A stretch of DNA of 61,486 nt, counting the filler, from Basidiobolus ranarum (taxonomy: Eukaryota), in assembly GCA_040143965.1 (NCBI GenBank). It is 9 parts of 9 records of this genome, joined end to end, with 100 filler letters (N's around TTAATTAATTAA, not from the genome) between each part and the next. Parts side by side here need not be neighbours in the genome. Positions count along the whole stretch, not along the records: positions 6,860 to 13,613 come from JASJQH010008128.1; 8 more parts are not named here. The stretch is one strand, 5' to 3'. The notes under the pieces were generated by a model that was not told the DNA's origin, ran no database searches, and saw only the letters and a list, made by a program, of their open reading frames with translations. The position numbers were made by a program, and so were the translations under genes. This document shows, one piece after another, positions 3,450-60,149 of the stretch (the stretch's first letter is position 1; each line of letters opens with the position of its first letter).

Positions 3450-4430
3450 CTTCAAGAATTTTACAGTACCGTTACCAATGTTTTTGCATCCACAGAGAAG
3501 TTTTGTGATGAAGACTTCCCCATTTGATGTTCAAGATGCAAATGGTGCTAGAAGACAAGGACTTTTAGGATTTATTAAAGGAGAAGAAATAGGGCCAAAA
3601 GCCCATAAGAAGCAGAGGAAACCACCCTCTATATGTTGTCTACATCTCAGAGACTCTACATTGAGGCATATACACTCAGCCAAAAATGTCCAAAATGCAT
3701 GGAAACACTTGAGGAGCGCTATGAGACAAACAGTCTAGCTAAAAGGCTATATCTTAGACAAGAATTATTATCAATTCAGATGAGTTCTGGTGATTATATA
3801 TATAATCATATAAATTTGATCCAAGCTATGGCAGATCAGCTCTCATCAATTGGAGCACCTCTAAATGAAGATGAAATACTCATGAGACCACTTGGAAGCC
3901 TGCCAGAAATGTTTGGGAATCTCAAAACTGCCCTAGATTTAAGATCAAAGCTATTAACAATGGAATATGTTGAAGCCAGGCTCTTGAATGGGGAAACAAA
4001 AAGATATAACTCTCAGCAAAATAATGTTGATCTGGCATTTCTTAGAGCTGCAAGATGTCAAACAAGCTTTGTTAATGGTGCCCCTAATAGGATATCAATC
4101 CTATGCAAGTATTGCAAGTAACCAAGCCATTTAATCAAACATTGCAGAAAAACAATTTTTAGCCAAAAGCTAAAATTGGGACAAGTAAGTCAAGTAAGTA
4201 CTGATATGGATCATCTATTTGTGTAAGCCAAGCAACAGCTCAATGACAAAGTTTTGTGCTCTGCAAAGCTGGATGTACTAACACAGGTCAAAATAGCATC
4301 CAATTAGCTACTGGGATCAGAACTCAAAACTCATACAAACTAGAAATCCACAAATTGCATTCTGAACATGTAAACTTGGCCAAAACTGGTTAAATAAGCT
4401 GTCAAAGATGTCACAAAAGATTGGTAAAGT
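3450..4430 (+). mobile_element. Ty1/copia gag remnant (UBN2-type region, CCHC knuckle, internally deleted)
   Basis: ORF 3633-4121 (LEERYETNSLAKRLYLRQELLSIQM...GSLPE) runs into CKYCK*PSHLIKHC, with frameshifts and stops. Homologous to 38200-39100. Confidence 0.9.
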
Positions 4431-6759: not shown

Positions 6760-6859
6760 NNNNNNNNNNNNNNNNNNNNNNNNNNNNNNNNNNNNNNNNN
6801 NNNTTAATTAATTAANNNNNNNNNNNNNNNNNNNNNNNNNNNNNNNNNNNNNNNNNNNN
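6760..6859. other. Artificial contig-joining spacer
   Basis: N44-TTAATTAATTAA-N44 (stops in all six frames). Confidence 0.99.
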
Positions 6860-7542
6860 ATTGGTCCATGGGATATGGCGGGCTCATGAGTAATAGAACC
6901 CCAATTTCAGGGGAGCTTATAATAAAATAAAGTTTCTATATAAATTAAGCCAAAATTAATCAACTATCCATAAACATGGAGGATTAAGCCATCTTGGATA
7001 AGAATCGGCCAAGGGACCAAGCACATGTTTTCAAATCAAGGGACCAAGCAAGGGACCTTGGGACTGTATCCAATGGCGCAACAGATTCTATTATTACGAG
7101 TTCTATTGTTGATCTGAGTTGACTGATTCTCATAGACTAGCCGTCCTATTCTCATAGCCACTAGATAGCATGGATATAATATAATGACTCTTAACTCCTA
7201 CTCCCGCATTTGGTAAATGCATTTAGTCTGGGTGCATGTGAAGTTGAATTTTGCATACAACATCAAGCGCAACACCAAGCGCAGGAAGGATCAGGGTTGA
7301 TTGCGTCAATGTTGTTGATTAGAGTGGCGGATGATGCACAAATCATCAAACAACTGAATAAAATGCCAGGCAACGTGAAGAATATGATGTCATTGAATTC
7401 CATATTAAGTAAAAGCAAATCAATGGATTTTGTTTGAATGTGTAATTACATAACTTCATAATAAATAGACAAGAAAAATATACATGGTGCATAATACTGA
7501 TATGAAACAAAGAATGAAGGAAAAGTGCACTATTAGTCCAGC

Positions 7543-10425
7543 TTAGTAGTCGAGCTTGATGTCGTTTCTTTGACGTAATCTAGACTTCATTGGTGTTCTA
7601 CTATCCTGCTCAATTGATAGCACATTGTTGTTGATCTCTTGCTCGGTAACTACTTTCTTGCTTCTTAGTTTCCTAGTCTTCTTCTTGAGTTGGGTGTTGT
7701 CGCCGAAAATATCATCGTGATTGGTTGTGGTGACACTAGTGGATGGTGTCTTACGGAACAAACCCCGGGCCTTTTTGATGAAAGGACTCAACGGTGTTTT
7801 CTCATTTTGCATTCGGAGCGCTTGAACCGCCGGGCTGGCAGATGATTCTGCTTCGTCTCCATGGTAGGTCTCGATATCCGTAAACACTACCTGGACACCA
7901 CCGGTAGGTGATTTTATGATCGGCCCTTTGACAACGGTAGTATCTTCCGAAGCTGGATCCACAGACACTGCTTCGTATGAATCATAAGCTAGCTTCTTCT
8001 TTCCCCAGAGGTATTTCTTCAAGAATCCGGATTTAACCTCACTCTTACTTAAGACAGCCGTGCTAGGAGCAGTGGTATTGTTGGCCTTGGAATCAGGAGT
8101 GGTGTGCATGAACGCGTTTGGTTTGGGTTTGGTCGGTGTAACTTGAGGTGGTCGTGCCTCTTCAGTTGAGACCTTGTCCTGCTGGTGGATACTGGTGGAA
8201 GCTATCTCAAGAAGTTTGGTGTTTTTGTGCTCCAAGTAAGCTTTGTCTTTGTCAAACTCTTTCTTCAATTCTAAGTTCTCACAAACGATTTCTTTCAAAT
8301 GGTTCTCCACTTCAGTGTACTCCATTTGCAACTTGTTGAATGATGCTTGAAGTTGGGCGTATTTCTGAGAATACTCTTTGGATTGTTTGGCCAGTGCTTC
8401 TTGTACGGCATGATCAACTTCAGTAGGTATGGATTCTTCAAGATCCTGAAGTTTCTCATACAATACCATTTTTTGGGATTTCTCTGCGGCCACCAATCCA
8501 TGTGAAGCGGCCAAATCGAATTCTAATTCACGTATGTTATTTTCCTGTGCAATAAGGATGGCTTTCTGTTGGTCTAGTTCGTGACAAAGTTGGATCACCT
8601 TCTCTTCGTCGTCTTGATCATTACCAGCGGCCAAGAACTCTACATGTGTCTGATTACGACTTAAAATATCGATCTTTTTCTCGGTCTTGAATTCGTTCAT
8701 CTCATTCTCATTTGTTAACCGTGAACTGAACATGGATTCCAATCGCTTCACTCTTTCAGCAAATTCGTTGGTTAACTCTTCACGTATCTCGGCTTCCATA
8801 TTCGCGCACCGGGATTCAGCATCTAACCATTTGTCACGTATTTCATGAAGAATATCTTCGTATTTTTTGACCATATCGGCAATGTAAACATCCTCTTCTT
8901 CGGATTCATACTCTACTTCATCATCCTCTTCGGACACAAAGTCAGAGTCGAAACTTGCCCGTTTTGATGGCTTAGTGGGGGTCTCCAAATCGGATTCCAT
9001 TTCCAGTAACTTCGATATCTTAAGCTTTTGTACTGTACGCTTAACGGTAGTGATATCCATCGCAACTGCAGCAAATTTGAGCACGTGACTAGTTTCAGCG
9101 AAACTGGTTTCATAAGGGTTCACATTTACCAACATCACCGCTTTGGCTTCTCCAGTGAAGGAGCTTTGGAAGATCTCGGTCAACTTTGACTGACGAAATG
9201 GTACCACTTCCTTATGTTCCCGAGTTTGATTGTGTCTCAAACTTTCCAAACATTGACCAAGTACCATCAATGATTTATTGATGTTGTTGGCCTCCTTGAG
9301 TCTCTCACCAGTATTGTTAGTAAGTTTACTACGCTCAGCTCCAGCCAAATCCACCAGAGAAATTCTACTGACAGAGGAGTACTTTATCTTCAAATCTTCG
9401 GTCATGGCATTCTTTGGAATTCGGATCAATTTGATAGTAAATATACTGTGGCTACGACTGGATACTGCATTCAATAAAGTGGAGAAAACGGTACGATTAT
9501 TTTGACCTTGATTCAAAATTTGATATCCATCTTCTACAGAATTCACTTTTAATTCACGTAATCCAGGAATATATTTGTATCCAGTTTTACGATCCTTTTT
9601 TAAGGTTAAAAATTTCCTCTTGGAATCATTCACCAAACCTGGATCAAGAAGGTCATACACTTTTTCATTGTAAATCTCTGCATAGGAGACCCACACTGCG
9701 TATTCATATTCTGGATCACATTCGATCTTGTCAAATGATTCTTCAAGTTGTGCTTGAGCGGAAGAAAATTGGTTCGATTGAAATTCTTCACTAGATTGAC
9801 AGGATTCTATTTCACAGTATCTAGCGGGTCGGAGAGTATCGGTGCTTTGCTTTCCTTGGATACTATTCAACATCAACTCGAGTGTTCTTGGTAATAAACC
9901 AGGGTTCTCGCGTGATCCCTGAATGGTATAGGTTTTACCAGAATTGGATACACCATAGGCAAATATTAATGCGTTTTCACCATTCATCACTTGGGAGATA
10001 AGTGGACGGGCGGTTTCAAGGAAGAAATCATTCTGGGTGGTATCTTCGTTAAATACTTTGGTGAATTTAAATCTTTCTTGGATACCACATCTAGCCTTGT
10101 AGGCAGTGGAATCCGTAGGTGGAGTCATTATCACCTCATGATCATTCACTAAGTCTAGGTAGCTGGTGGGTAGACTGGTGAGTAGGTTACGGTTGGGTCC
10201 AGGTCGGATACGTAAAAAGGTCTTCACTGGCTCTCTATCGGGATCATAGTTGTTAAACTTTCTCTCTAATCTACTAAGGTAGGGTGTTTTGCCACCCACG
10301 GGAGCTCCAGGGGAGGTGACCCCTTTGAATAAGCTCTTTCTTACGTTCGCCACTGGACTCTGAATACGGAAGTTTTTGGAGACTCCTGTGTATGGAGTCA
10401 TACTGGGGCGTGGTTGTATTTCCAT
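7543..10425 (-). CDS. Kinesin-6 family motor (MKLP1/KIF23/Klp9-like), single exon, 960 aa
   Basis: Motor motifs IFAYGVSNSGKT, SSRSH, LVDLAGAER and VPFRQSKLT, an enlarged loop-6 insert typical of kinesin-6, a coiled-coil stalk, and the tail motif KGPIIKSPTGGVQVVFTDIET. Confidence 0.93.
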   Translation of the reverse strand: MEIQPRPSMTPYTGVSKNFRIQSPVANVRKSLFKGVTSPGAPVGGKTPYLSRLERKFNNYDPDREPVKTFLRIRPGPNRNLLTSLPTSYLDLVNDHEVIMTPPTDSTAYKARCGIQERFKFTKVFNEDTTQNDFFLETARPLISQVMNGENALIFAYGVSNSGKTYTIQGSRENPGLLPRTLELMLNSIQGKQSTDTLRPARYCEIESCQSSEEFQSNQFSSAQAQLEESFDKIECDPEYEYAVWVSYAEIYNEKVYDLLDPGLVNDSKRKFLTLKKDRKTGYKYIPGLRELKVNSVEDGYQILNQGQNNRTVFSTLLNAVSSRSHSIFTIKLIRIPKNAMTEDLKIKYSSVSRISLVDLAGAERSKLTNNTGERLKEANNINKSLMVLGQCLESLRHNQTREHKEVVPFRQSKLTEIFQSSFTGEAKAVMLVNVNPYETSFAETSHVLKFAAVAMDITTVKRTVQKLKISKLLEMESDLETPTKPSKRASFDSDFVSEEDDEVEYESEEEDVYIADMVKKYEDILHEIRDKWLDAESRCANMEAEIREELTNEFAERVKRLESMFSSRLTNENEMNEFKTEKKIDILSRNQTHVEFLAAGNDQDDEEKVIQLCHELDQQKAILIAQENNIRELEFDLAASHGLVAAEKSQKMVLYEKLQDLEESIPTEVDHAVQEALAKQSKEYSQKYAQLQASFNKLQMEYTEVENHLKEIVCENLELKKEFDKDKAYLEHKNTKLLEIASTSIHQQDKVSTEEARPPQVTPTKPKPNAFMHTTPDSKANNTTAPSTAVLSKSEVKSGFLKKYLWGKKKLAYDSYEAVSVDPASEDTTVVKGPIIKSPTGGVQVVFTDIETYHGDEAESSASPAVQALRMQNEKTPLSPFIKKARGLFRKTPSTSVTTTNHDDIFGDNTQLKKKTRKLRSKKVVTEQEINNNVLSIEQDSRTPMKSRLRQRNDIKLDY

Positions 10426-11379
10426 CGTGAAAAGAATGGAAAACTGATAGGAAAAGTGAAATCAATAAGGGTTAATCTACAAAAAATGAGAAAAGAGGGT
10501 GGGTAAACCCTGAGAAGGAGCAAAGGTTAGTAGGAGGTGATGGTAAACAGGTGCGGAGTGAAAAAAACTGGTACTCGTTACTATTAATATACCTACATTG
10601 TTTTCATTTCATAAAAATCCGCATCCGCCCCTACACACGATTGACCTTTACCTTGGTTGAAATGTTATTTAGTAAACAAATCAATGACCAATCAATCCTC
10701 AGTAGGAAGAGTCACTGGCTTGATTTAGAGATAATTGTATGATCTTTCCCCAATAAAATGCTTTTTAACAGATCTCCAAATTATTTGGAATCATGTTACG
10801 TGCTACTCCAACGTGATTACGATACCAGTATATGCTAAGCCCAAATCTATAAATAACGTTGAGGCTGTATAAAGAGACTTTACAGAATTGGTATTGAAAT
10901 GTTGCAGGTGCGATTGGATTAGGATCAATCTAACTTTACAATGGTCACCGTAGGAGGAGCGAATTGTCTCCTGAATTATTAGAATTAGTCCTCATCTAAT
11001 ATGCTGGAGTCGACTTGTTCCTCTACTTTCAATAGAAGATGCATGTATTTAACTTTGATAAAACGTATACAAGTAGCCTCCATTTCTAACTGTCATTGTT
11101 TTCTAATTTTTGCAAGATGGCCACGAGATATCAGTATAACTAATTCTACCAGTTACACTTATGTGTGATACTTTACAAACTGAGTAAAGGACTAAAACCA
11201 CCATATTTTGCATTCAACATGTTTTGGCAATAATTCCAAAACTAAGATATATTTATATATACTAAGAATATATTTCAAGTAAAATAACGCAAAATTAGAA
11301 ATGAATAATCGATATTCAACCATATATACAGTTTATGAATGTAAAAAAACGAAACCATAGGAAGTTGAAATATCTAGTA

Positions 11380-11930
11380 CTGAATTATTTGTTGGGCATT
11401 GTGCCTATATCAAGTACTTAGTTTCCTACATATTTCAAAGCAAAATCACAGTATATGTTTTAAATATAACTCAGGAAATTTGTACTGAAATACACTTTTA
11501 AAGCTGGTTCAGAATCACCAAAAATATCGCTCTCCATACTTGGTTTCTAAAAATATAACTTCATAGTATTCTTACTAAGAGGAATATCATTGTTGAAGTA
11601 TTTTGGGAGTTTGTTGGAAATGGTTTGGATAACTAGAAGAATTGATGGTTTTCACTTATTGATTTATTGAGTAGAAAGTTGACATTCATAATTATGTCAA
11701 GATATAAACACACAAAAATATAGAATGTATTAAAAAAAGTTTCAAAAACTTGTATGCAAAGTTTGGGGCTTCTAGCACAAGTTCTCAAAATCTATGTATC
11801 TTCCAACTTCTAAGCAAATTCCTCTTGAGAATAGTGGGTGATATCTTAGTGAAATATGATATAACTAAATACTAGGCTGTATAAGACTACATAGATACTG
11901 AGGCTATGCTAATTTCAATAATCATTAGGC
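11380..11930. repeat. AT-rich, CpG-poor dispersed repeat 'Z'
   Basis: 11595-11690 matches 34500-34590 (gttgaagtattttgggagtt...ctagaagaatt...aagttgacatt). 11815-11925 matches 34251-34360. 11380-11440 resembles 61195-61260. Confidence 0.75.
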
Positions 11931-13270
11931 AATGCAACTACAATGAGTTTGTACAACCAATTTACAGACCAATTTCAAAAACTATACCTTGGAAGATAAA
12001 TATAAACCAGACAATAATTGTAAGCAAATCATTGACTAAGTTGAGCTCCTTTGAGATTAATTTGGTTAATCTTGGAAACTCAAATCCATATTTCTAATTC
12101 TTGGATAATCAGCAGTTGTTTAAATAAAGTCCATATTATAAAATGAGTCATAATGCTTCAACTTAGTGGAATTTGTCTAAAGAACGTTAACTAGCTTAGA
12201 TTAATATAGAATATTTTTAGGGATAGATATATATAGGCACTTAGTATACTATACGTTGATGTTCTTTTGTGAGAGATAACTGTGGATATGTACTTCTAAC
12301 TCTATGAAGATATATGTGTCAGTTTCATATTGCTTGTGATTCCCATTACTATTTCCAAATCAACTTTGAATAAACATTACTTTCAAGTATTAGAGCGTGA
12401 TGATCTTTTAGCCATCATTTCATCCTATTGCCTCCTTCACTGTATCACCATGAGTACAATACTCTGGTAGTGTTTAAATCAGTGCACATGAAAATATTAG
12501 TAAGTTGTAAATTTTTAAACTATTCAACAACCCTCCAGGTGCTCATATGTCCTGAGTAGAATATGAGCATTTGTTTCGCACATTGACACATCTATTTTAG
12601 CAATAATTAATAAATGCACAAAAAAAAAATGGTTGATTTGTTTCCAAAACCCCATCATTAATCCTTTTAACTTCCAAAATCACCTGGCGAAAGCAGAATT
12701 ATCACCGTGTTTTCATTAGTAGCCAACCAAATTATTCCAAAAGAATGCAACATTCCATTTAAATATTTCATCTTTACTTGCTGCTACGAAATACTACGGA
12801 TTAGATTTTGGTGGAGATGAAAATTTTCAAGTCGATGGATTTGGTTACTTCCATACCAAGTGTATTGAATATTTATTTTTAGTTGCAATTGTTTATACTC
12901 TCCAGGATTGGAAGTCTAATGGAGTGATTTCGAAACATGGGTTCTAAGAAAGTATATCTCTTCCATATATAGAATGATAGACGAATTTGGATATCAATCT
13001 GAGTTCAAATCATATCAAATCAATATCGGATGTGGATGTAGATGTAGATGTAGATGTTCTATAATTCACTACGGAATAATTGATTGGACTATACAATACC
13101 ATTAAGTTAGATAATATATATAGCTATACAAGTGGCTTGGAAAGTGTTGAATCTGGGTAAAGTTATCTAAAAGATCGACAATCACTACCAACATATCCGC
13201 AATCCTAGGCTAGATCTTTAGATAGAAGTTCTTGCCGTCCACTTTCACGGTGGAACTCAATACATTAACT

Positions 13271-13291
13271 CCGGCCGGATCGGTATATAAA
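13271..13291 (+). promoter_or_regulatory. CGG-triplet cluster (ccggccggatcgg) plus TATA box upstream of the MFS gene
   Basis: TATATAAA at 13284-13291, about 40 bp upstream of the ATG. CGG triplets are typical of Zn2Cys6 sites (inference). Confidence 0.45.
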
Positions 13292-13331
13292 GACTAGAGA
13301 TGAACTCGATACTACTCAAATATCAGCAAAA

Positions 13332-13613
13332 ATGTCTGAAAAACAAGCTACATTACGTGATTCAGTATCTAATGACACAAATGTACCAATTGAGTGCATA
13401 AAACAGGGTGATCTGGAGCAAGCTAAATCAGTAGAGGTTTCCTCTAGTCATGTTATGCTCCCGTTTTCTCAATTAATATTAGTTTTTGTAAGTCTTGCAC
13501 TAGCCGTAGTATTGGCTGTGCTGGATCGAACTATCGTAGCTACAGCTCTACCGAAAATCGCTTCTGATTTCAGTGCATTTGATCAAATTACTTGGGTGGC
13601 TACTGCATATATG
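13332..13613 (+). CDS. MFS drug:H+ antiporter (DHA2/14-TMS type), 5' fragment cut by the contig end
   Basis: The TM1 motif LAVLDRTIVATALPKIASDF...WVATAYM is characteristic of DHA2 pumps. Confidence 0.9.
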
Positions 13614-13713
13614 NNNNNNNNNNNNNNNNNNNNNNNNNNNNNNNNNNNNNNNNNNNNTTAATTAATTAANNNNNNNNNNNNNNNNNNNNNNNNNNNNNNN
13701 NNNNNNNNNNNNN
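13614..13713. other. Artificial contig-joining spacer
   Basis: N44-TTAATTAATTAA-N44. Confidence 0.99.
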
Positions 13714-14973
13714 CTGCTTGAGCCTTAGCTAAGACTCCAATATTTGGTCCAATATTACCAATAGAGAAAGCACCAATGATAGTACCAAATAGTACAGTTA
13801 AGACATTACCAGACTCCATCTCACCTTCCTTGACTAGTCTGCCACCGTACCAGAAGGCAAGTGCGTAGGCACAAAACATGACAAACATGAATGAACCCAT
13901 ACCAGCACCAGTGACAAAGGCTTTCTTGACCCCAGCTTTATAAGCTGTGGCCAGTACATCTTCAAAGCGCTTGACCTCGCGGCCCTGACCGTTGAAGGCA
14001 ACTACAGTACGAATAGAGCTAATTGCTTGTTCAGCGAGGCCCCCAGCTTTGGCATAAGAGTCTTGCCCTGCGGAGGAGGACGCCATTGTGTACTTGGCCA
14101 TAAGAGCACCGCAGACTTCATTGAAGAAATTGATGTAAAAGGAGCTCGTGAGTTATAGTTTAAAAGATATATTAGTAAACAGGGTTTTTAATTACTTACA
14201 TCCCATGACAGGAACAGCAGTCAAGAGAACCAAGGTCATTTTCCAACCTGCTAGGAAGGCAATCACGAAGCCTGTAATGAAGGTCGAGAGTGACATAATA
14301 CACATGCCAACCTTATCGGACATGCCGTCAAAGATCAATTGAGTGTCAGAATTAAGACGCGAGTTGAGAGATTCAGACTTTTTGCCAATATCGTGCCATG
14401 CAATATCTTGGCGCATGATTGCGTGTAGATATTTCTCACGAATACGCTTGGTTTGATTCTCAGCAGACAATGTAAAAAAACACATTTGGCCATATGCGGC
14501 GAAAAGTATGATGGCACCAATGATGGTGAACTTGATGACGATCTCTCGCAAAGTAGCGACTTGATCTTTGATTGTGTCAGGATTAACAGGTCCTGTGATG
14601 CCGTTGATAACATCACCCATCAATTGGGCAACCAACGGCTGACCCACACCGCATCCAATAGCACATATGGTACCCAAACTATTGGAGAGAATATTTTTGC
14701 AGCAATTAGATTGTTATTAAGATATGTTATTTATGAGGGTACGGATACTTACATGATACAAGTGATGTCCCAAGAGCTGGCAAAGCGGTAGAGCTTGAAG
14801 TAGCTGACTTTGAGGCCTGGTTTTTTTGCATCCTTCATTTTCTTATCTTTCTTTTTGTCGTCATCAATATCATCAATACTGACGCCCAGGTCTTTTTCGT
14901 TGCTCACAGAAATGGCAACAAGATTCTCATTGTTGTGGGCGGATAAATCCTCAAATGCCTCTTCCTTGGACAT
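13714..14973 (-). CDS. ABCB1/MDR P-glycoprotein-type transporter, 5' part (TMD1); exons 14973-14753, 14678-14200, 14115-13714(cut)
   Basis: VSYFKLYRFA, RIREKYLHAIMRQDIAWHD, YAKAGGLAEQAISSIRTVVAF and ALAFWYG. Two GT-AG introns restore the frame. Confidence 0.93.
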
Positions 14974-18646: not shown

Positions 18647-20462
18647 TCATAAGTTTTGCTTTTGGCATAATTCGGCGTAGACACCACCCAATGCGACCAA
18701 CTCGTAATGCTTTCCTGACTCGACAATGTTGCCACCCTTAACTACTAGAATAAGGTCGGAATCCTGAATAGTGCTCAGACGATGAGCAATGACAATCGTT
18801 GTTCTTCCTGATCGAGCCTGATCCAGAGCTTCTTGGACCAGCTTTTCGGACTCAGAGTCTAATGCAGACGTTGCTTCATCTAGTAACAAGATTTTGGGGT
18901 TACGAATCAACGCACGTGCAATTGCAATACGTTGCTTCTGACCTCCTGATAATTGTGATCCCTTGTCACCCACCGATGTTTCATATCCATTAGGTAACGA
19001 CATGACAAAGTTGTGGATGTTGGACAATTTGGCTGCGGCCTCAACTTGTTCCTGAGTGCCTTCGCCTTCTGGTAACCCATAGAGAATGTTCTCCCGGATT
19101 GAGCAATCGAACAAAACAGGTTCTTGGCCGACAAGAGCCATATGAGACCGAATGTTGTTCAATTGAAGATCCTTGATATTATAGTTATCAATTACAGCCT
19201 TGCCCTCGATGGTATCGTACCAACGCTCCATCAATGCAATGATTGTAGATTTGCCGCATCCAGAAGGACCAACTAGGGCCACAGTTTGTGAGGGTCGAAC
19301 AGAAACATCGACATCCTTGAAGATCTGAATATCTGGTCGAGTGGGGTATGCAAAGTTCACCTTTTCAAGTCCCATAGCACCAGCCACACTGTGAATAATG
19401 ACACCATCTCTGTCGGCGTCAATAGTTGTATCCTTGTCAAATAATTCATAAATATTGATAGCAGATTGCTTTCCCTTGGCATACTTGGGCAATTCGGCAG
19501 TAATATGACCGAGAGACATTGCCATGAACACAATACCGAACATACACTTGAACATAGCATCCCAAGTAATGATACCTGCCTCGACTAAACGGTAACCGCC
19601 ATAGAAACCGATAGAATATGACCAGATGCTAACAGCCTGAGAGATAGCGAATCCGATGGATGCAAACAGGGCCTTGTTGATAGCATACTTGTGAGGCTCC
19701 TTAGTGACAGCAAAATAGCGACGTTCAAACTCATCTTCCTTGGCGAGTGATGCAACTGTGCGAATGTTAGCAATGGCCTCACCAGCAACCTGCCCTGACT
19801 TTTCATAAGCTTTACGAGTCTTCTCACCAAAGCCAGTCAAAGCGGCTATTTCGAGATATTGGGCAAGACCAATGATAGGAACAGCAAGTAAAATAATAAG
19901 AGTCATCTGCCAAGTAGCAGCAAACGCGAATCCGAGACCACATGCAATTGTTGCCAATGATGATACAGTAGTCAGCACAACCTGTGAAACCATATCATAC
20001 ATCTGCTGTGCGTCGGTGGCGAGACGTGAGGCAAGTGCACCGGTACTGTTTTCAGGTTTGTCGAAGAATCCCATCTCTTGAGACATAATAGCACGATAAG
20101 AAATGGATCGCATACGCCGTGTCATACGCTCACCAACAATCATGAATGTAGCCATACCACCACAGAACCCGATGAAACCAATAATTGCCAAACCAAAAAA
20201 GTAAAGGGAATATGTGCGGATATTGCCGGTAAAATCATAATCAGGGTCTTGAGATTTATAAAGAGCGGTGAGAGCCTGGGCAAAGACTTGAGAGAAAGAG
20301 GGGAAAAGAGCACCTTGAATAATAGCAAAGAAACAACCAATAAGGCAGATGAAGTAGTCGGGACGCATGTAGAGGAGTGTGCGACCAATTGGTGCTTGTT
20401 GCATCTGGAGCTTTCGAGCTGCTTCCTTCTAGCGACGAGCCTCGGGCATTTCTTCACCTTCA
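18647..20462 (-). CDS. ABCB1/MDR transporter, 3' part (linker-TMD2-NBD2), cut by the contig end; in-frame TAG at 20431-20429
   Basis: Walker A GPSGCGKST, signature LSGGQKQRIAIARA, Walker B ILLLDEATSALD and H-loop IAHRLSTI. Confidence 0.93.
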
Positions 20463-21671: not shown

Positions 21672-22924
21672 ATGACTCTATCCGAAGATCACGCTGAGAT
21701 AAATACCTCACATGATTCCCTAAACTTCGATACTTCCAACTTCAAACAACCTACTTTCTGGAGCCATGAGGAAACCAAACTACTTATTATTCTACGTCAA
21801 GAAAGAAATGCGTTGTTTCTATCAATGAAGCGGCCGAGAAAGCTCTGGGCCGAAATCGCTGCCGTTTTACAGACTAGAGGCTTCGATAAATCAAGTGAAC
21901 AATGTCATCAGAAATGGAAAAATATGTTGCGATCTTTTAGGGTAAGTATATTCCATTAAATATAATTCAAGGTTCATCTCACTTTTCAGAATGCTAAGTT
22001 AAAGTCAATAATAGGAAGTAGATGAGTACAATAGCAAAGTAATTCCTGCCGAAAAGAAAAAATGCTCTTTTTATGATGAAATCTCCGACTTTTATAACAA
22101 AACTCGTTTTGATTCTCCTAAACCTTCTGACGCCGATGATCGAGTTTCCCCAGAGTATGTAAAGAGGATGTTTGATTCTTTATTTGAATGAATCATTAAA
22201 CCTATTTGTCTATTTCATTTGAACTCTAACAGTAGTGAGGGTAAAGTAGATATATCTGACACTCCACTTTCAAGGTAGTCATTTAAACAATATCATAATG
22301 ATTTTTCGTTTAAACTCATGGACTTTATTTAGCCACTCGGACTTCCAGAATCATTCGCTTAGTGTCCCAGTATTTGACACAACATCATCACCATCCAATA
22401 TAAGTATAGGATCCTCAATATCTATCTCAAACTCACACAATCACCCCAAAGCTGCTAGCAATGGCACAGCACGACCTAAACGCTCATCAGATGGTATTCT
22501 CACACCACTCCATAGTAAAGCTATGCGGATCCAACAGGAGGATTTCGACGCTTCAATTCCTCAAGAGAAGTTGTTGAATGAATTTCGTCTACTCACTGAC
22601 CACCACAATTCTCTAAACACGGCGTATCACAGTCCACTCCCGCAAAAATTCAACTCAGGATCTCACACCTCAAACGGTGCGAGTGAGCTAAACGAAGACA
22701 TGGTCAACTCCGGATCCAAAGAAGATATGGAAAGATTTTTCAATTTTTACCGTGAACAAAGCCTCCGAATGAACACGGGTGCTGAAAAAGCGAGAGAAAA
22801 TTTTCGGTACACTTTGGAGGTAATAGAGAACCTAGCCAAAGACTTTGCTGAAAAGGAACACCAATATGCAGATCGTCAAGCCAGAATGTTTGAAAAATTC
22901 GTGGAGGCTTTGAGGAAAGATTGA
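21672..22924 (+). CDS. Trihelix/Myb-SANT-like (GT-1/MSANTD-type) DNA-binding protein with C-terminal coiled coil; 4 exons (21672-21941, 22015-~22154, ~22232-22274, ~22333-22924)
   Basis: WSHEETKLLI...KLWAEIAAVL...GFDKSSEQCHQKWKNM...CSFYDEI matches the Myb_DNA-bind_4 pattern. GT-AG introns. Confidence 0.85.
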
Positions 22925-24569: not shown

Positions 24570-25863
24570 ATGGTTGTCAATTCCTTGGTGAAATTTGGGT
24601 TTTCTTATTCTAATGAAATCCCTACCTTCCTTATGCTGATAACAGTAACTAGTGTATTGGTTTGCATTGGACTGGTGATAAAGGTGGATATATTCTAACT
24701 ATGACTGATTTATTTATCACCATTTCCTAAAGTTATTTTTATAGCTATCAAAAGTGAACTCTAATGTTTTAAGGCGAGTCACTTGGTCCTTCTCACCCAC
24801 CACTTCCAAACCAATATTGCCTAGTACTCTTAGTACCCTACGTGAAACGGGGCTACCGACCTTATGCACGAATCAAATGCCACTCGAGAATAGTCTAAGT
24901 AATATTTCAGAGAAGCGGCTCGACTACAAAGTTAGTGACGCAAAAGTAGCGATAGATAAAACTTTGGGTCTTTCCGAGGTGAAAAAAATTGGCGAAACGG
25001 CCAATATTTCACCTCGCAAGACTTCTCTGACTCAGGCTGTGCCTTCTAATGAAATTAAATCTAAAAAAGATAAACCCCAACATGTGGAGCTTTCGAAACT
25101 AACCGACTCATCAGCAACTAATTCCCAGGAGCTAAACAGTATATCAACTGAAGAATCACACCCCGAGGGTACAAGTGCTAAATCTAAATCGTCACTTGAT
25201 ACAGAAATGGATCACAACTCTCATCGGATAGTGGATACTTCAATAGTAAGTCCTGCGGATGATAAAGATTTCATCGCTATTGAAAAAAGACGGCGCCGAA
25301 AGAACAAGAAAGTCAAAAACCTAGCCAACGGTTCACCACAAACCATCACACAATCCGATAACAAGGTTGAGATTCCTAAACATTCAAAACAAATTCGTCG
25401 TCGCCAGAAAACATCTTCTGCCGAATCGTCTCCACATCAAAGCCCTACATCCTCTCCAAAAGTGGCTAAATTAATATCCTTCAAACAATCCCCAGACAAT
25501 ACCGCCAGTTGTCAATCGCGGGCACCACCAGCAATCCCGGCTAATAACGTAAACGCTTCAATGGTGACAAACACCAGACGACCACATTCAGTTAACCCAC
25601 CGCCCCGAGCCACCTTTATCAATATGGGTTATGACTTTCAACAATGGTATTCCCCATTCGCTTCTGGCTTCCATGTCGATGTTTCCGACCGCCGGCTTGA
25701 CCAAAGGGAGTCTTTGCCAATTTCAAGTAACCGACCCAACCCAAATTTCTCTGTCGCTAAGCAAGCTTCTCAGTTGCCACAGAGAAATAACTTTAGGAGC
25801 GACTCGTATTCCAGATATATTCCTCAAGGACAGCAATTTTCTTTATTTGAGAGAGGGTTCTGA
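24570..25863 (+). CDS. Hypothetical protein: N-terminal transmembrane helix, long S/T/K/P-rich disordered tail; exons 24570-24683, 24745-25863
   Basis: A 369-aa ORF plus an in-frame upstream exon encoding FLMLITVTSVLVCIGLVIK. Contains a basic cluster KRRRRKNKK. Confidence 0.65.
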
Positions 25864-44482: not shown

Positions 44483-45376
44483 CTACGTATGACGAACACT
44501 ACCTACATTTAAATCTTGGAAGTACACATGTTGTAAAGCATCCTTGGCTGAAATCCTCAAATGTGGTTGGTACTGAAGCATTCTAGAGAGTAGATCAATT
44601 CCGTAAGGATCAATCATGGGCAGAATTTGGCTCAGATTCTGAGGTGAATAGAACGGAAAGTTATTTCGATATGCCGGGAACTGACTAACAGTTGGCCAAG
44701 AGTGTTCCGAGGGGGTACCCAAAGCTCTGAATATCTTTAGTAATTGATCATCATTGGTTGTTCCTGGGAAAAGTGGTCTTCCAGTGCACATTTCTGCCAT
44801 GATACATCCGGCAGACCAAATATCAATGGTGGTAGTATAATTGCGTGAGCCTAAGAGTACATCCGGAGCTCGATACCAGAGTGTCACTACTTCGTTAGAG
44901 AAAGTGTTCACTGGAATACCGAAAGCCCTTGCTAAACCGAAATCCCCAAGCTTCAGTTCACAACGGGAGTTAATAAGAAGGTTCTGGGGTTTAAGATCTC
45001 TGTGAAGTACTCGATTTTCATGACAGAAAGCAATACCTCGAAGAAACTTAAACATGAACGACTTAATGGTGAGCGGTTCTAAAACTCCATTATTTCCATG
45101 AGTATCCATGTATTTTTTCAAGTCTTGCTCCATGCATTCGAACACAAGCATTAGCTTATTCTCAGTGTGAACAACGTCGTGGAGTCGAACGATGTTGGGA
45201 TGTTTAAGTTCTTTCATTAAAGAAATCTCCCGAATCGCAGTAGAAGGAGCTCCTTCCTCTGCGTCAAGATGAATTTCTTTCAAAGCAACCGTCTCACCAT
45301 TAGCTCGATTTTTACCTTTATAAACTGTGGCATAAGTTCCCTCTCCGAGTTTTTCAAGACGATGATATCTATCCAT
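44483..45376 (-). CDS. PHO85: Cyclin-dependent kinase Pho85 (CDK5-like), intronless
   Basis: [34 protein letters not shown] and [30 protein letters not shown]. Confidence 0.95.
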
Positions 45377-54659: not shown

Positions 54660-54759
54660 NNNNNNNNNNNNNNNNNNNNNNNNNNNNNNNNNNNNNNNNN
54701 NNNTTAATTAATTAANNNNNNNNNNNNNNNNNNNNNNNNNNNNNNNNNNNNNNNNNNNN
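54660..54759. other. Artificial contig-joining spacer
   Basis: N44-TTAATTAATTAA-N44. Confidence 0.99.
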
Positions 54760-56840
54760 TAATGAGAGTAATCGCTAAGATCATTCCCAAGAATGAAGTT
54801 TCTTCCATTGCCCTCAACTATATTGCTACTATGTGCGCTGGTCTTGTCAATCGTCGTTGCTTCGAAGTTGTTGAGTGGGATATGTGTATTGTACCCTATC
54901 TTTCTCCTTATATTCTTCAACAAAATGCCGACACTGTCTGTGCTGGTATTTTGAAATACTACGTCGATTGGGATGAGAAGCGTGCTAAGGACGCCGCCGC
55001 TGCTGCTGAAGATGAGGAAGGTGAAGAGCTTTGTGACTGCGAGTTCTCCCTTGCTTATGGTGGTATGATTTTATTGAACAACACTAGACTCAAGTTACGT
55101 CGTGGACAGCGTTATGGACTTTGTGGACCTAACGGTGTTGGTAAATCTACACTGATGAGATCTATAGCCGAAGGAAAACTTAACGGTTTCCCATCTGCTG
55201 ATGAGCTCAAGACTGTTTTCGTCGAACATAACTTACAAGCTGAAGAGGCCGAACTTGGTGTTCGTGAATTCATCGCCAAGGATGAAGGTCTTACAAATGT
55301 AACCGTGGAGGAGATCAGAGAGATGCTCTCCAGTGTTGGTTTTACTGAGGAGATGCAACTCATGGCTGTGTCTTCCCTTTCTGGTGGTTGGAAAATGAAA
55401 TTGGAGTTGGCCCGTGCTATGTTGATGCAAGCCGATATCTTACTCCTTGATGAACCTACCAATCACTTGGATGTTACCAATGTCGCTTGGTTAGAGAATT
55501 ATCTCAATAGCCTCACCAACGTAACCAGTATTCTTGTTTCTCACGACTCAGGCTTCTTGGATAATGTTTGTACCAACATTATTCATTATGAAAGCCGCAA
55601 GTTAAAGATTTACAAGGGTAATCTCTCTCAGTTTGTTATCCAAGTCCCTGAAGCCAAATCCTATTACGAACTTGCCAGTGCTACTCATAAATTCAAGTTA
55701 CCCACTCCTGGTATTTTGGATGGTGTAAAATCAAAGGGTAAGGCCATCTTAAAGATGACCAACATTGGTTTCACCTATCCTGGAGCTAGCAAGCAGGCTC
55801 TTCATGATATCTCCGTTCAATGTTCTTTGAACTCTCGTGTTGCCGTTCTCGGTCCTAATGGTGCTGGTAAGTCCACTATGATCAAGGTACTCACTGGAGA
55901 AATTGTTCCCGATTGCGGTGAAATCAAGAAGCATCCTAATCTTCGTGTAGCCTATGTTGCTCAGCACGCCTTCCACCACATTGAAGAACACCTCGATAAA
56001 ACTCCTAATGAATATATTCGCTGGCGTTATCAGAGTGGTGAAGATCGCGAGTCTTTGAGTAAGGCTAGTAACCAGATCACCGAAGAGGAACAGAAGCAGA
56101 TGGATACCGTCGTTGTTTGGGATAATGAGAAGCTCAAGGTTGAAGGGCTATATGGACGTCGTAAGGCCGGCCGTTCTTCTGAATATGAAGTTCAATGGAT
56201 TGGCAAGAGCCATGAAGACAATGCTTGGGTCCCACGTGAAGATTTAGAGAAGTGGGGATTCAAGAAGATGTTGGATGCTTACGATGCCAAGGAAGCCGCC
56301 CTTGCTGGTGCTTGGACTAGACAATTGACTGCTAAGGAAGTAGAGAAGCATCTTGGTGATCTTGGATTAGATGCCGAATTTGCTACTCACAATCGTATTC
56401 GTGGTTTATCTGGTGGTCAAAAGGTCAAGGTTGTAATTGCCGCTGCTATGTGGCTCAACCCTCACTTATTAGTTCTTGACGAACCTACGAATTACTTGGA
56501 TCGTGATTCTCTTGGTGCTCTTGCTGAGGCCATCAAGGAATACGAGGGAGGTGTAGTTATGATTTCCCATCACACTGAATTCACCTCCAGCTTGTGTTCC
56601 GAGACCTGGAAGGTGGATGCCGGTACCGTCGAACTTGAAGGTAACGACTACTCCGCCAATGCTGGTGAGAAGATCCAAGGACGTGACGAAGCAGCAACCA
56701 AGATTGATGCTTTCGGTAACGTCTCCAAGGTTGTTTCCAAGAAGAAGCTTACACGTAAGGAACTCAAGCAAAAGCAAAAATGGAGAGCCCAGAGAATTGC
56801 TAATGGTGAGGAAGTAAGCAGTGATGAAGACGATATCTAA
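54760..56840 (+). CDS. YEF3: Translation elongation factor eEF3 (ABCF, tandem NBDs with chromodomain insert), N-terminal HEAT region cut off
   Basis: CEFSLAYGG..LL, GPNGVGKST, LSGGWKMKL, AYVAQHAFHHIE, LSGGQKVKVV and a basic/acidic C-tail. Strong codon bias favours eEF3 over New1. Confidence 0.9.
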
Positions 56841-57276: not shown

Positions 57277-58320
57277 TCATTGGGTTAGCTGATCTAATTT
57301 AATTTTTTCGAGTAGGGCCTCGATTTGAGGTGCTTTGACCGCGGCCTCAGTAGTGCTGTTGGGATCAAAGTAAGGTCTTTCACCAAGCACAGTTACGCGC
57401 TCACCGTATCTACTATAAGGATAGTAATCGGGGGTTGCGTTGTGTTGTGTACTACGATTATCCCAGATAGCCACGGAATTGGGAGTCCAAGACCAACGTA
57501 CTTGAGCTTCGTGGCTACGTTGAAGATGGTTGAACAAAAAGTCCAGGATCACATCTGATTCTATAGGAGTGAGCTCCTTAATGGCTTTGGTGAAGATAGC
57601 ATTAACAAATAGCCCTTTCTGATTTGTCAATGGATTGGTTCGAACTAATGGGTGCTCAGTATTAGTTGGAATCTCTCTTGTCAGTGGCTTACCGGAAAGC
57701 TCGGCAAGTTTGACAAACACTTCACCACTGTGAATCCCGGTCAATCCATCCAAAAACTTCTGGAACTCAGGGCTTAGTTTATCATAGAGAGCATAGGAAT
57801 TTGACCACAGCGTATCTCCACCCGTTGCAGGGACTTGTTTTAATTGAAGGATGGAGAAAGATGCTGGATGTTCTTCAAATGAGATATCGGTGTGCCAGTA
57901 TCCTTTACGATAAATATTATCCACGTACGGAATGGATTTTCCCGCTCCAGATGGAATCACAATTTCTGGATATGAATCTGGGGCAGAGATAAATGGATGA
58001 ATATGAAGTTCACCAAGTCTTCGGCCAAACTTAAGCTCATCTTCTTGAGTAAACTCTTGATTCCTAAAGAAAACCACCCCTCTCTCGGCGATTAAAGCCA
58101 GGAGATCCTCAAGTTGAGCATCTGTCAAGTTGGACAACTGCAGGCCTTCGAGCTCAGTACCAATGGATGGGGTGAGGTCAGTACGTTTAGTTGCTACATC
58201 CAACAGATTCTTGCGCTCTGGATGAGCATTAAAGCCTTGTATATACTTAGAGTTACGATAACTATCAAGAGAGTTAGCGGAGGCTTCTGTTACTGAGGTT
58301 GCTTGATTGGGGACAGTCAT
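57277..58320 (-). CDS. Fe(II)/2-oxoglutarate sulfonate dioxygenase (TauD/Jlp1 family), intronless
   Basis: DLTPSIGTEL, ERGVVFFRNQ, WHTDISFE (HxD), GGDTLWS, EHPLVRT and AIWDNRSTQH. Likely ATG at 58320. Confidence 0.93.
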   Translation of the reverse strand: MTVPNQATSVTEASANSLDSYRNSKYIQGFNAHPERKNLLDVATKRTDLTPSIGTELEGLQLSNLTDAQLEDLLALIAERGVVFFRNQEFTQEDELKFGRRLGELHIHPFISAPDSYPEIVIPSGAGKSIPYVDNIYRKGYWHTDISFEEHPASFSILQLKQVPATGGDTLWSNSYALYDKLSPEFQKFLDGLTGIHSGEVFVKLAELSGKPLTREIPTNTEHPLVRTNPLTNQKGLFVNAIFTKAIKELTPIESDVILDFLFNHLQRSHEAQVRWSWTPNSVAIWDNRSTQHNATPDYYPYSRYGERVTVLGERPYFDPNSTTEAAVKAPQIEALLEKIKLDQLTQ

Positions 58321-60149
58321 GTTTGAGAGTAGATGAGTAGAGGAATACGTGATAAGTGAAGATACCTTGAACTGAATCAATATATACTATGTTGTAGGGA
58401 AGCTACGACCAGTGTCGCCATCGCTTGCAAAGCTTTCATAATTCTGTTTCATGGTCACATCATACTCTGCCTCGGATGACACTATGTCTGAAGGTGGGCT
58501 TTGGGCTTCAATTTAACTAGTAGTTACCCATTTTGTGAGTGCGCGATCTGCTAACTAGTTAGTACAGACACTGTGAATGGGATTAAGTTGACTAGTTGTG
58601 TGATTAAAACACCTAGTTTGGGGAAATCTACGGACTCTAGATATTAGGTGATCATCGAGGGAAATGGCATTATTTGTTTATTTAATTGATGGGATGGAAA
58701 GAATTATATGTAACTGGTAAGTACAGGATTGAAAAAGCAGGTTGGTTTCTGTGTGTAACAAGTTAATTGAATCTCATCAATGTTTGATTGAATTGTTGTC
58801 AATATTATCTAAGCGTTCAGTCCATCCGTCACAATAGCCAATAATTAGCAAATGGCCATATCTAACGTATACTAATATGATGGTGCGTTCGATTCTGTTA
58901 TAACCTTGGGAATCATCAACGAATATATGCTTCACAGACCATAAAAACAGAGATGGCTAGTTCATCCTTACGAGGCAGGGCACATTACATGTATTCTCTG
59001 TGTTGTGTGAAGATCTGAAAGTGATCTATGAGCTCTCCCGTCATTCATTTGAGATCGCTACAATAATTAGCCAACTGATTGAAAGCATACTATCAGTGTA
59101 TTTGGCAATTTATTTGCATCTGCTTTTACTAAGCAACATACTTATCTAAGATGTGATCGACTTCTCTATCTCTAATCAGACAAATACCTATCTTGGTCAC
59201 ATTGGACTTGTTGCCCTCTATAGTGCCAGATTCTATGGCTGTATATAGAACATTGGATCAAGTATTCTGAAAACCATGCGGCACAATTTGCCACTATCCA
59301 GCACCCTCCAACACAATCAATTTCAATCATTCGATTACTCTATTACATTGAGCCAAGGTCCGATAACCTCTGGCCTGATGGAACAAGTCTATTGTTACAC
59401 TTCACCTGATGTTATTGGAAATGGTATTATCTTCATTTCCCTCTCTTAGCATTTCCAACAGACACAGGCCATATCTGGTTTGTTGACAAGTAACTAATTA
59501 GATAGCAATCAGATGGTGGTGCTTGCTTACCATATATTACTTGGTCATTATCTTTGTGGATGCGCCTACCACCTCCAATAGGCGCTTAGAATACCACCTG
59601 ATGGAATTTCTTTGGATATTCATTCTATTCCCCAATTTACAAGAATGCATTGCCTTCCTAGGTGGTAGAGTCACGTGATATTTGCCTCAGCCACTTCCAA
59701 GATGACGTTAGAGATGCATGCGCATTCGCCTCTATACTTTCCAACGTTTTCTGATTTCAAATATTGTGAGCGATGTGGAATTTCCCTAGTCTTATTATCT
59801 GCTGTACACTCTGATCTTGCAGCGAGAAGCAGATCACATACACAGCACCCAACCGTTGAACAGCCCCAGATCAAAGGGAGGGAGATATTTGATTGTGTAG
59901 TTACAGCACTCCGATTGTAGTTCGTGCCTGAATCAGTGCTGATTGGAAATTCCGATGCTATCTTGCTTGGAAGTGTTAATGGATGCAATGGAGAACATGC
60001 ATTCCGTAATAGAATGTGAACTAGTGTTTTGTATCGTACATTGGATGATTTCTAAGAAATCCATCTAAACTGACGCACCTTTGGCATCCTTTCTTCATAG
60101 CAGTCCAATCATATTATTATCAATCTTGTAGTTGTTTGTATAGTCATTT

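Follow-up and report, generated by a model that had tools for sequence, protein, structure and literature searches.

In the window, a stretch of 61,486 nucleotides of Basidiobolus ranarum DNA (assembly GCA_040143965.1), we found the gene of a kinesin-6 whose tail carries a conserved block that, among the families of Pfam and the chains of PDB, is most similar to the C-terminal part of the Arf6-binding domain of KIF23 (MKLP1). The block is very probably homologous to that domain. The explanation that we favour, as a reasonably probable one, is that of an ordinary Basidiobolus kinesin-6 which would have kept a diverged and N-terminally shortened homologue of the KIF23 domain, ancestral to fungi and animals, as a putative Arf tether. 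The window is formed by nine parts joined with 100 N of filler between them, and the kinesin lies in the part at positions 6,860-13,613 (JASJQH010008128.1). A single open frame spans 7543-10461 on the minus strand; read from the first ATG, the coding region (7546-10425, with the stop codon at 7543-7545) gives a protein of 960 amino acids, P0001. Its features are the following, where A1 is an alignment of six fungal tails (P0001, a second B. ranarum sequence named P0121 and four proteins of Dimargaritales).

7543-10425, minus strand: complete single-exon kinesin-6 gene (P0001), 960 codons plus stop, from the open frame and its translation
10225-10425, minus strand: N-terminal extension, residues 1-67, with four S/T-P sites (T10, S23, S38, and T47), from the residue count compared with composition
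9052-10224, minus strand: kinesin motor domain, approximately residues 68-458, with an excess of about 55 residues over the Pfam profile, from PF00225
8191-8868, minus strand: stalk, presumed coiled coil, approximately residues 520-745, from the E/K/L/Q-rich sequence
7855-8046, minus strand: conserved tail block, residues 794-857, a probable diverged homologue of the C-terminal two thirds of the KIF23 Arf6-binding domain, from alignment A1 and PF16540
7861-7944, minus strand: core hairpin motif, residues 828-855, matching PF16540 positions 73-100 and 3vhx_B residues 79-111
7546-7854, minus strand: C-terminal basic, S/T-P-rich tail, residues 858-960, from the sequence

When the tail of 213 amino acids was scanned alone, its sole Pfam match was MKLP1_Arf_bdg (PF16540); this match covers profile positions 73-100 of 107 and reaches 27.5 bits (E 3.1e-6). 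A phmmer search of 177,635 PDB sequences put 3vhx_B, a KIF23 chain of the Arf6-MKLP1 complex, in first place, with 14 identities in 33 residues and E 0.12, and the A1 profile searched against the same sequences gave 3vhx_B as its sole match, also with E 0.12. Word-based searches with the tail alone returned only the query itself. The peptide on which a previous, sequence-only reading of this DNA had based its call of a KIF23-type tail (KKKLAY...FTDIETY) was found exactly as quoted, at residues 809-854 (7864-8001, minus strand), inside the interval 7855-8015 that it had marked. The window contains one match to a degenerate DNA pattern for GGxxVxFTDIET, and 100 shuffles contain none. In a metagenome collection this pattern was present in nine stretches, of which five are Pfam-confirmed KIF23-type tails, three of these being in open reading frames (ORFs) for full-length proteins with kinesin motors; a sixth (L001) looks KIF23-like by translation across an apparent intron, and the other three look unrelated. 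The position of the core is also comparable, at residues 828-855 of 960 in P0001 and at 816-895 in KIF23-type proteins of 912-978 amino acids. In a phmmer comparison, residues 54-857 of P0001 were aligned in one stretch with residues 17-858 of the environmental protein L004.

The five Pfam-verified environmental KIF23-type tails, which score 84-130 bits with PF16540, were aligned (A2) and compared with the fungal tails. By hhalign, A1 and A2 matched with a probability of 88.9% (E 2.4e-6, 31 columns), and BLASTP of the window tail with one of these tails (L007) gave 16 identities in 27 positions. With the A2 profile searched against 121 fungal sequences, P0001 was first (2.6e-7) and P0121 second (8.3e-6), and the top five were completed by P0064, P0071, and P0073 of Dimargaritales (0.048-0.24); P0113, the fourth of Dimargaritales, was seventh, after one spurious N-terminal match. 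The fungal tails were all aligned at the same site, and the best E of the other fungal kinesin-6 proteins was 0.39. Since the retrieval pattern copied the motif of the window, the scores based on A2 are biased upward, a bias from which the Pfam results are free. In the combined alignment of 11 tails, G, GG, V, and F were kept in all of them, and the fungal and KIF23-type tails share the hairpin core, an upstream tyrosine and aspartate, and a lysine pair. Two blocks are absent from the fungal tails. One is the W-L-x-H-K-P block, which all five KIF23-type tails conserve, and the other is a basic serine-rich block, seen in four of the five KIF23-type tails and in none of the six fungal ones, which we take to be the Aurora B / 14-3-3 site of MKLP1.

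Relatives of the tail were looked for among fungi with residues 750-880 as the query. Against the other 119 fungal kinesin-6 proteins, phmmer gave four relatives with about 41-42 bits each, all of them from Dimargaritales (Dimargaris, Tieghemiomyces, and two Dispira species). An exhaustive phmmer search of 1.84 billion representatives gave five matches at E <=0.001, among which the sole new genuine one was the B. ranarum fragment P0121, of 294 amino acids and 74% identity overall to the window protein. It is annotated as a separate hypothetical protein, and it corresponds to the C-terminal third of a kinesin-6 (end of the stalk, tail block, and basic tail). P0122 (703 amino acids) and P0123 (1780 amino acids) were rejected as tail relatives, being tandem-repeat proteins; their E <=1e-4 arose by summing many weak repeat matches, and rows of this kind need inspection. 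In A1, 21 columns are invariant over a block of about 65 residues. An upstream block, K-S-x-F-[LI]-K-K-x-L-x-G-K-K-x-L, is specific to the fungi and common to both fungal groups. Scanned singly, five of the six fungal tails had PF16540 as their top Pfam match (E 4.1e-5, 1.7e-4, 8e-4, 1.6e-3, and 0.065), and the Dimargaris tail had no Pfam match; the bits of the five relatives of the window protein were 21.9, none, 19.8, 18.8, and 13.6. The two Dispira tails were aligned to PF16540 positions 40-105, and therefore the likeness to this family extends past the final hairpin. Metagenome contigs were also scanned with the fungal tail alignment, and among 589 stretches that fit a pattern there was no confirmed relative.

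Several observations weigh against an Arf6-binding homologue in this protein. The gathering cut-off of PF16540 is 28.2 bits, and P0001 stayed below it with 27.5 bits for the 213-residue tail, 23.9 for a 97-residue piece, and 18.7 for the whole protein; none of the six fungal tails attains it. The window protein covers 28 of the 107 profile positions (73-100) and, considering both the cut-off and the full length, the tail is not counted as a member of PF16540. The statistically supported alignment is only about 30 residues long (28-31), and in the combined alignment nothing in the six fungal tails corresponds to the N-terminal third of the animal domain. The core motif varies, from FTDIET in the window to FNDIAT in P0121 and to FSDL, FSEL, or FADL in Dimargaritales. 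The A2 sequences were fetched by a pattern made from the window's own motif, which inflates the A2-based scores in those 12 residues. The models of the tail obtained with AlphaFold2 (AF2) were poor, with a pLDDT of 50.5 for residues 750-880 as a single sequence and of 55.3 with A1 (pTM 0.13). For the motor, KIF20A gives better scores than the KIF23-type proteins do (253-255 versus 208-228 bits). Finally, the fungi were sampled without chytrids, Blastocladiomycota, Kickxellales, Entomophthorales, or Ascomycota, and Klp9 of S. pombe is outside the sample.

Part of these data would be explained by a chance or convergent likeness of a short beta hairpin, which agrees with PF16540 matches that are all under the cut-off, with PDB E-values of 0.12 and 0.026 and with a supported alignment of 28-31 residues. 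We consider this explanation quite improbable, given that in the whole of Pfam no other family competes with PF16540 for the tail (E 3.1e-6), that five of the six fungal tails match PF16540 independently, and that the proteins in which the block occurs belong to one kinesin subfamily, agree in length, and carry it at the same site. The Dispira alignments, which reach profile positions 40-105, point in the same direction, and the pattern is specific, five of its nine metagenome matches being Pfam-confirmed KIF23-type tails and a sixth being KIF23-like by translation. The MKLP1/KIF23-type tail that the sequence-only reading had announced can thus be kept as most likely a homologue, with PF16540 as the top family in five of six tails, 3VHX chains first in three PDB searches, and the hhalign probability of 88.9%; what does not hold is a complete domain, as the scores are below the cut-off and only the C-terminal 28-65 of 107 positions are covered. 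The Pfam scan which that reading had proposed gave, in the same way, a mixed answer, with MKLP1_Arf_bdg as the sole family matched (E 3.1e-6) and 27.5 bits against the 28.2 of the cut-off.

The motor was analysed separately. In P0001, the Pfam kinesin motor (PF00225) was detected at residues 110-458 with E 2.9e-92, over profile positions 34-327. The 349 residues are laid over 294 profile positions, and the PDB alignments were split around residues 195-245, which may reflect the large loop 6 insertion of kinesin-6. The best PDB matches of the motor were KIF20A constructs (253-255 bits), followed by chain 5x3e (216 bits), which we take to be ZEN-4, and all other kinesin classes gave <=179 bits. 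Because its best solved motor relatives are KIF20A and 5x3e, ahead of the other kinesin classes, P0001 is a kinesin-6. With three environmental KIF23-type proteins, phmmer gave 208-228 bits. In a collection of 5.8 billion proteins, the nearest ones were two kinesins of Basidiobolus meristosporus, with 85% and 77% identity, and the next were kinesin-6 proteins of Mucoromycota, Glomeromycota, rusts, and other basidiomycetes, with 35-53% identity over the aligned motor part. By these 85% and 77% identical relatives, the gene is judged to be of Basidiobolus origin. The earlier identification of a fungal kinesin-6 agrees with all of this, with the E of the motor, with kinesin-6 as best PDB matches, and with the Basidiobolus proteins as nearest ones. 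Taken as a whole, the sequence-only reading is supported in part, the motor having its best scores with KIF20A. The public models of the two B. meristosporus kinesins (P0002 and P0003, of 586 and 592 amino acids) are marked partial and stop soon after the motor; these records hide whether B. meristosporus has the tail block. Outside the motor, no Pfam family matched the stalk in the scan of the whole protein, and the C-terminal tail has a lysine/arginine cluster, KKKTRKLRSKK, at residues 914-924, a possible nuclear localisation signal.

The distribution of the block was determined with the A1 profile, which found it in five of 120 fungal kinesin-6 proteins, namely, the window protein and the four of Dimargaritales. 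It was not found in the other 115 proteins sampled, Basidiomycota included (best E 0.26), two of which are the partial B. meristosporus models that end before the tail and are uninformative. The sequence-only reading had made its novelty depend on the domain not being widespread in the kinesin-6 of Dikarya, and in this sample, where Basidiomycota represent them, the 0 of 115 is in agreement with it, with the same two proteins ending before the tail. The tail family is then present in two fungal phyla, that of Basidiobolus and that of Dimargaritales.

A kinesin-6 phylogeny, which the same reading had recommended, was built on 418 motor-domain columns, with FastTree for 120 rows and with the "quick" mode of IQ-TREE for 41 rows. 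The latter tree contains 38 of the 120 fungal rows, chosen by hand to span the groups, plus three KIF23-type proteins, and has no KIF20 rows. Both motor trees track the fungal phylogeny. Basidiobolus, Dimargaritales, and Syncephalis were grouped with a support of 95 (FastTree) and 83 (IQ-TREE), and 38 of 38 fungal rows were separated from the KIF23-type rows by a branch of support 100*. As the motor tree follows the fungal phylogeny, the gene is unlikely to have passed recently from an animal. Basidiobolus inhabits animal guts, and a horizontal transfer of the tail or of the whole gene from an animal or another holozoan would account for the patchy distribution among fungi (5/120) and for the Basidiobolus motif being nearer to the animal motif than that of Dimargaritales is. 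It would, however, have to face the place of the Basidiobolus motor within fungal kinesin-6, on the other side of the 100* branch from the KIF23-type rows, the presence of the tail in Dimargaritales, which are mycoparasites of another phylum, and the upstream half of the block, which is specific to fungi and common to both fungal groups; we hold such a transfer to be extremely improbable. Most likely, the tail block descended vertically from a kinesin-6 of the ancestor that fungi and animals share; among the fungi sampled it would have persisted in Basidiobolus and Dimargaritales, and the other lineages would have lost it or have a version that diverged past recognition. In the simplest view, an ancestral tail was preserved in these two lineages and disappeared from the rest.

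Considering that the KIF23 domain binds Arf6, the block of the window protein could quite possibly bind membrane-bound Arf-GTP and link the midzone to the septation site. As a basis for assigning the fold, which is a dimeric beta sheet in 3VHX, the AF2 models of the tail were rejected, since their confidence was too low (pLDDT 50.5 and 55.3); the single-sequence one has strands at residues 828-855, with low confidence. Searched by Foldseek, that same model had 3vhx_H in rank 1 of 350,542 chains, aligned over 44 columns with 41% identity, at E 0.026 and a probability of 0.98 (TM 0.23-0.33). As the AF2 model was poor, with its pLDDT of 50.5, this match largely restates the sequence similarity. 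ESM Atlas gave no usable feature match for residues 780-880, and the structure neighbours were all under TM 0.5. The prediction of a complex of two copies of residues 793-863 had a score of 0.00, against a mark of 0.32, and so gave no answer and is evidence neither way.

An alternative is that the tail is homologous to the KIF23 domain and lost the binding of Arf, or never had it, so that the block would be a remnant hairpin with another use, such as tail dimerisation or the binding of microtubules, importin, or another partner. The conservation of the C-terminal part of the domain alone, the drift of the motif within the genus and in Dimargaritales, the low confidence of the structure models, and the basic tail, similar to a nuclear localisation signal, directly after the block are all compatible with it. 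On the other hand, in PF16540 as in the five KIF23-type tails conservation is highest in the very part that was retained, and the 21 invariant columns across two fungal phyla indicate selection on the block. Besides, a likely partner is old: the portion of PMC8358228 on which we rely infers Arf6 to be ancestral to eukaryotes. Taking these points together, we regard a remnant unable to bind Arf as unlikely. In Table 1 of PMC6724607, the part of that source used here, MKLP1 is listed as an interactor of Arf1, Arf3, Arf4, Arf5, Arf6, and Arl1.

The N-terminal end of the protein also has a resemblance to KIF23. Several TP/SP sites had been pointed out in it, and indeed there are four S/T-P in the first 50 residues of P0001, compared with 0.33 expected from composition; S23, S38, and T47, three of the four, are kept in both B. 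meristosporus relatives, and none of the four has the full S/T-P-x-K/R form. The phmmer alignment of P0001 to the environmental KIF23 L006 begins at residue 46 of the query and residue 22 of the target, which places the K-T-P of both proteins in register. These KIF23-like features at both ends, the K-T-P and the tail block, together with the coupling of mitosis to division in Basidiobolus (Robinow 1963, in the part consulted), would be expected if the fungus had an animal-like centralspindlin module, made up of the kinesin-6, a Cyk4-type RacGAP, Ect2, and Arf6. The evidence on the other components points elsewhere. In the sections of the Glotzer 2024 preprint at our disposal (10.1101/2024.08.16.607330), Ect2 is placed in Metazoa and choanoflagellates and no further, Cyk4 proper is metazoan, and the KIF23 of Filasterea and Teretosporea is not predicted to bind their C1:RhoGAP proteins. 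The basic serine-rich block with which the animal domain begins is absent from the window tail, and there is no Cyk4- or Ect2-type protein among the nine other long ORFs of the window. A centralspindlin module of this kind is thus very improbable, and nothing in the evidence at hand indicates a Cyk4/Ect2 centralspindlin complex here.

By comparison with known systems, the window protein is similar to KIF23/MKLP1 (ZEN-4, Pavarotti) in that both are kinesin-6 proteins of similar length whose stalk bears the block at its C-terminal end, with the core G-x-[IV]-x(5)-GG-x-x-V-x-F-T-D-I-E-T common to both and with the N-terminal K-T-P in register; it differs in that the tail is without the N-terminal third of the domain but with the fungus-specific upstream block, and in that the motor is no closer to KIF23 than to KIF20A. 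KIF20A/MKLP2 is the best PDB match of the motor and is a kinesin-6 whose motor domain contains an insert, as that of the window protein may; KIF20, as described in the portion of 10.1101/2024.08.16.607330 used here, has at its C-terminus a long coiled coil and is devoid of an Arf6-binding domain, in contrast with the tail block of the window protein. The Klp9-type kinesin-6 proteins of Mucoromycota, Glomeromycota, and Basidiomycota are orthologous to the window gene by the motor tree, but the block was not found in the 115 others sampled (the fungal profile gave a best E of 0.26, and the KIF23-type profile one of 0.39). Another parallel is the kinesin-6 P002745 of Corallochytrium limacisporum, with a motor that clusters with Kif20 and a low-confidence predicted Arf6-binding domain, as in the window protein; this organism is a holozoan and not a fungus, and the comparison comes from the legend of Supplementary Figure 1 of the same preprint. 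The passages of that preprint which we used consider the Arf6-binding domain unique to Kif23 family members, with Kif23 orthologues in choanoflagellates, Filasterea, and Teretosporea, and they describe searches directed mainly at holozoan datasets. In the literature searched on the MKLP1/Kif23 domain, centralspindlin, kinesin-6, and Basidiobolus, we found no paper that reports a fungal occurrence of the domain.

Other features of the window were recorded as well. A run of N at about 6850-6900, approximately 650 bases past the stop codon of the kinesin, was read as a probable assembly gap. A gag ORF of a copia-type LTR retrotransposon (PF14223, E 2.3e-18), from a transposon or its remnant, lies at 3612-4121 on the plus strand, about 3.4 kb downstream of the 3′ end of the kinesin in the coordinates of the joined window. 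Pieces of ABC transporters were seen on the minus strand at 13661-14713 (transmembrane regions) and at 18650-20428 (transmembrane plus ATPase half), which may represent exons of a single MDR-type gene or of two. An ORF of 710 amino acids at 54708-56837, plus strand, has a 4HB domain and two ABC ATPase domains, the second of which is interrupted by a chromodomain; we take this architecture of ABC ATPase and chromodomain to be that of the fungal translation elongation factor 3, which would agree with an origin from a fungus. Also found were a complete protein kinase domain (44486-45376, minus strand, E 3.5e-73) and a dioxygenase of the TauD/TfdA family (57280-58386, minus strand, E 5.8e-62). Two long ORFs on the plus strand, 22250-22921 (224 amino acids) and 24745-25860 (372 amino acids), matched no Pfam family at E <=0.001.

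Returning to an Arf tether in an ordinary Basidiobolus kinesin-6, its mode of action may be proposed as follows. The dimeric motor would gather at the anaphase midzone, where its two tail hairpins would bind GTP-bound, membrane-anchored Arf of the Arf6 type by beta-sheet extension, and the bundle of midzone microtubules would thereby be tied to the plasma membrane at the future septum. The setting would be that of a fungus whose uninucleate cells divide after every mitosis; in the portion of Robinow (1963) used here, the cells of B. ranarum are uninucleate and division invariably follows mitosis. It may even be speculated, doubtful as this further step is, that a tail older than the separation of fungi and animals is still in use by Basidiobolus, and perhaps by Dimargaritales, as a tether between midzone and membrane that places or stabilises the septum through Arf6-GTP, which would make an animal-like, spindle-directed cytokinesis without Cyk4 or Ect2.

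Considering that the cells of Basidiobolus are very large and uninucleate and that each mitosis is followed by division (same portion of Robinow 1963), this fungus would be a practical organism in which to study the role of the tail before centralspindlin. In current accounts, as given in the parts of 10.1101/2024.08.16.607330 employed here, KIF23 with its Arf6-binding tail is traced back no further than unicellular Holozoa, and the gain of the tail is regarded as a step towards animal cytokinesis. If the explanation favoured here is true, the presence of the tail in two fungal phyla would move its origin back at least to the common ancestor of fungi and animals and would imply its repeated loss in most fungi, and the link between the kinesin and Arf would be older than, and independent of, Cyk4 and Ect2.

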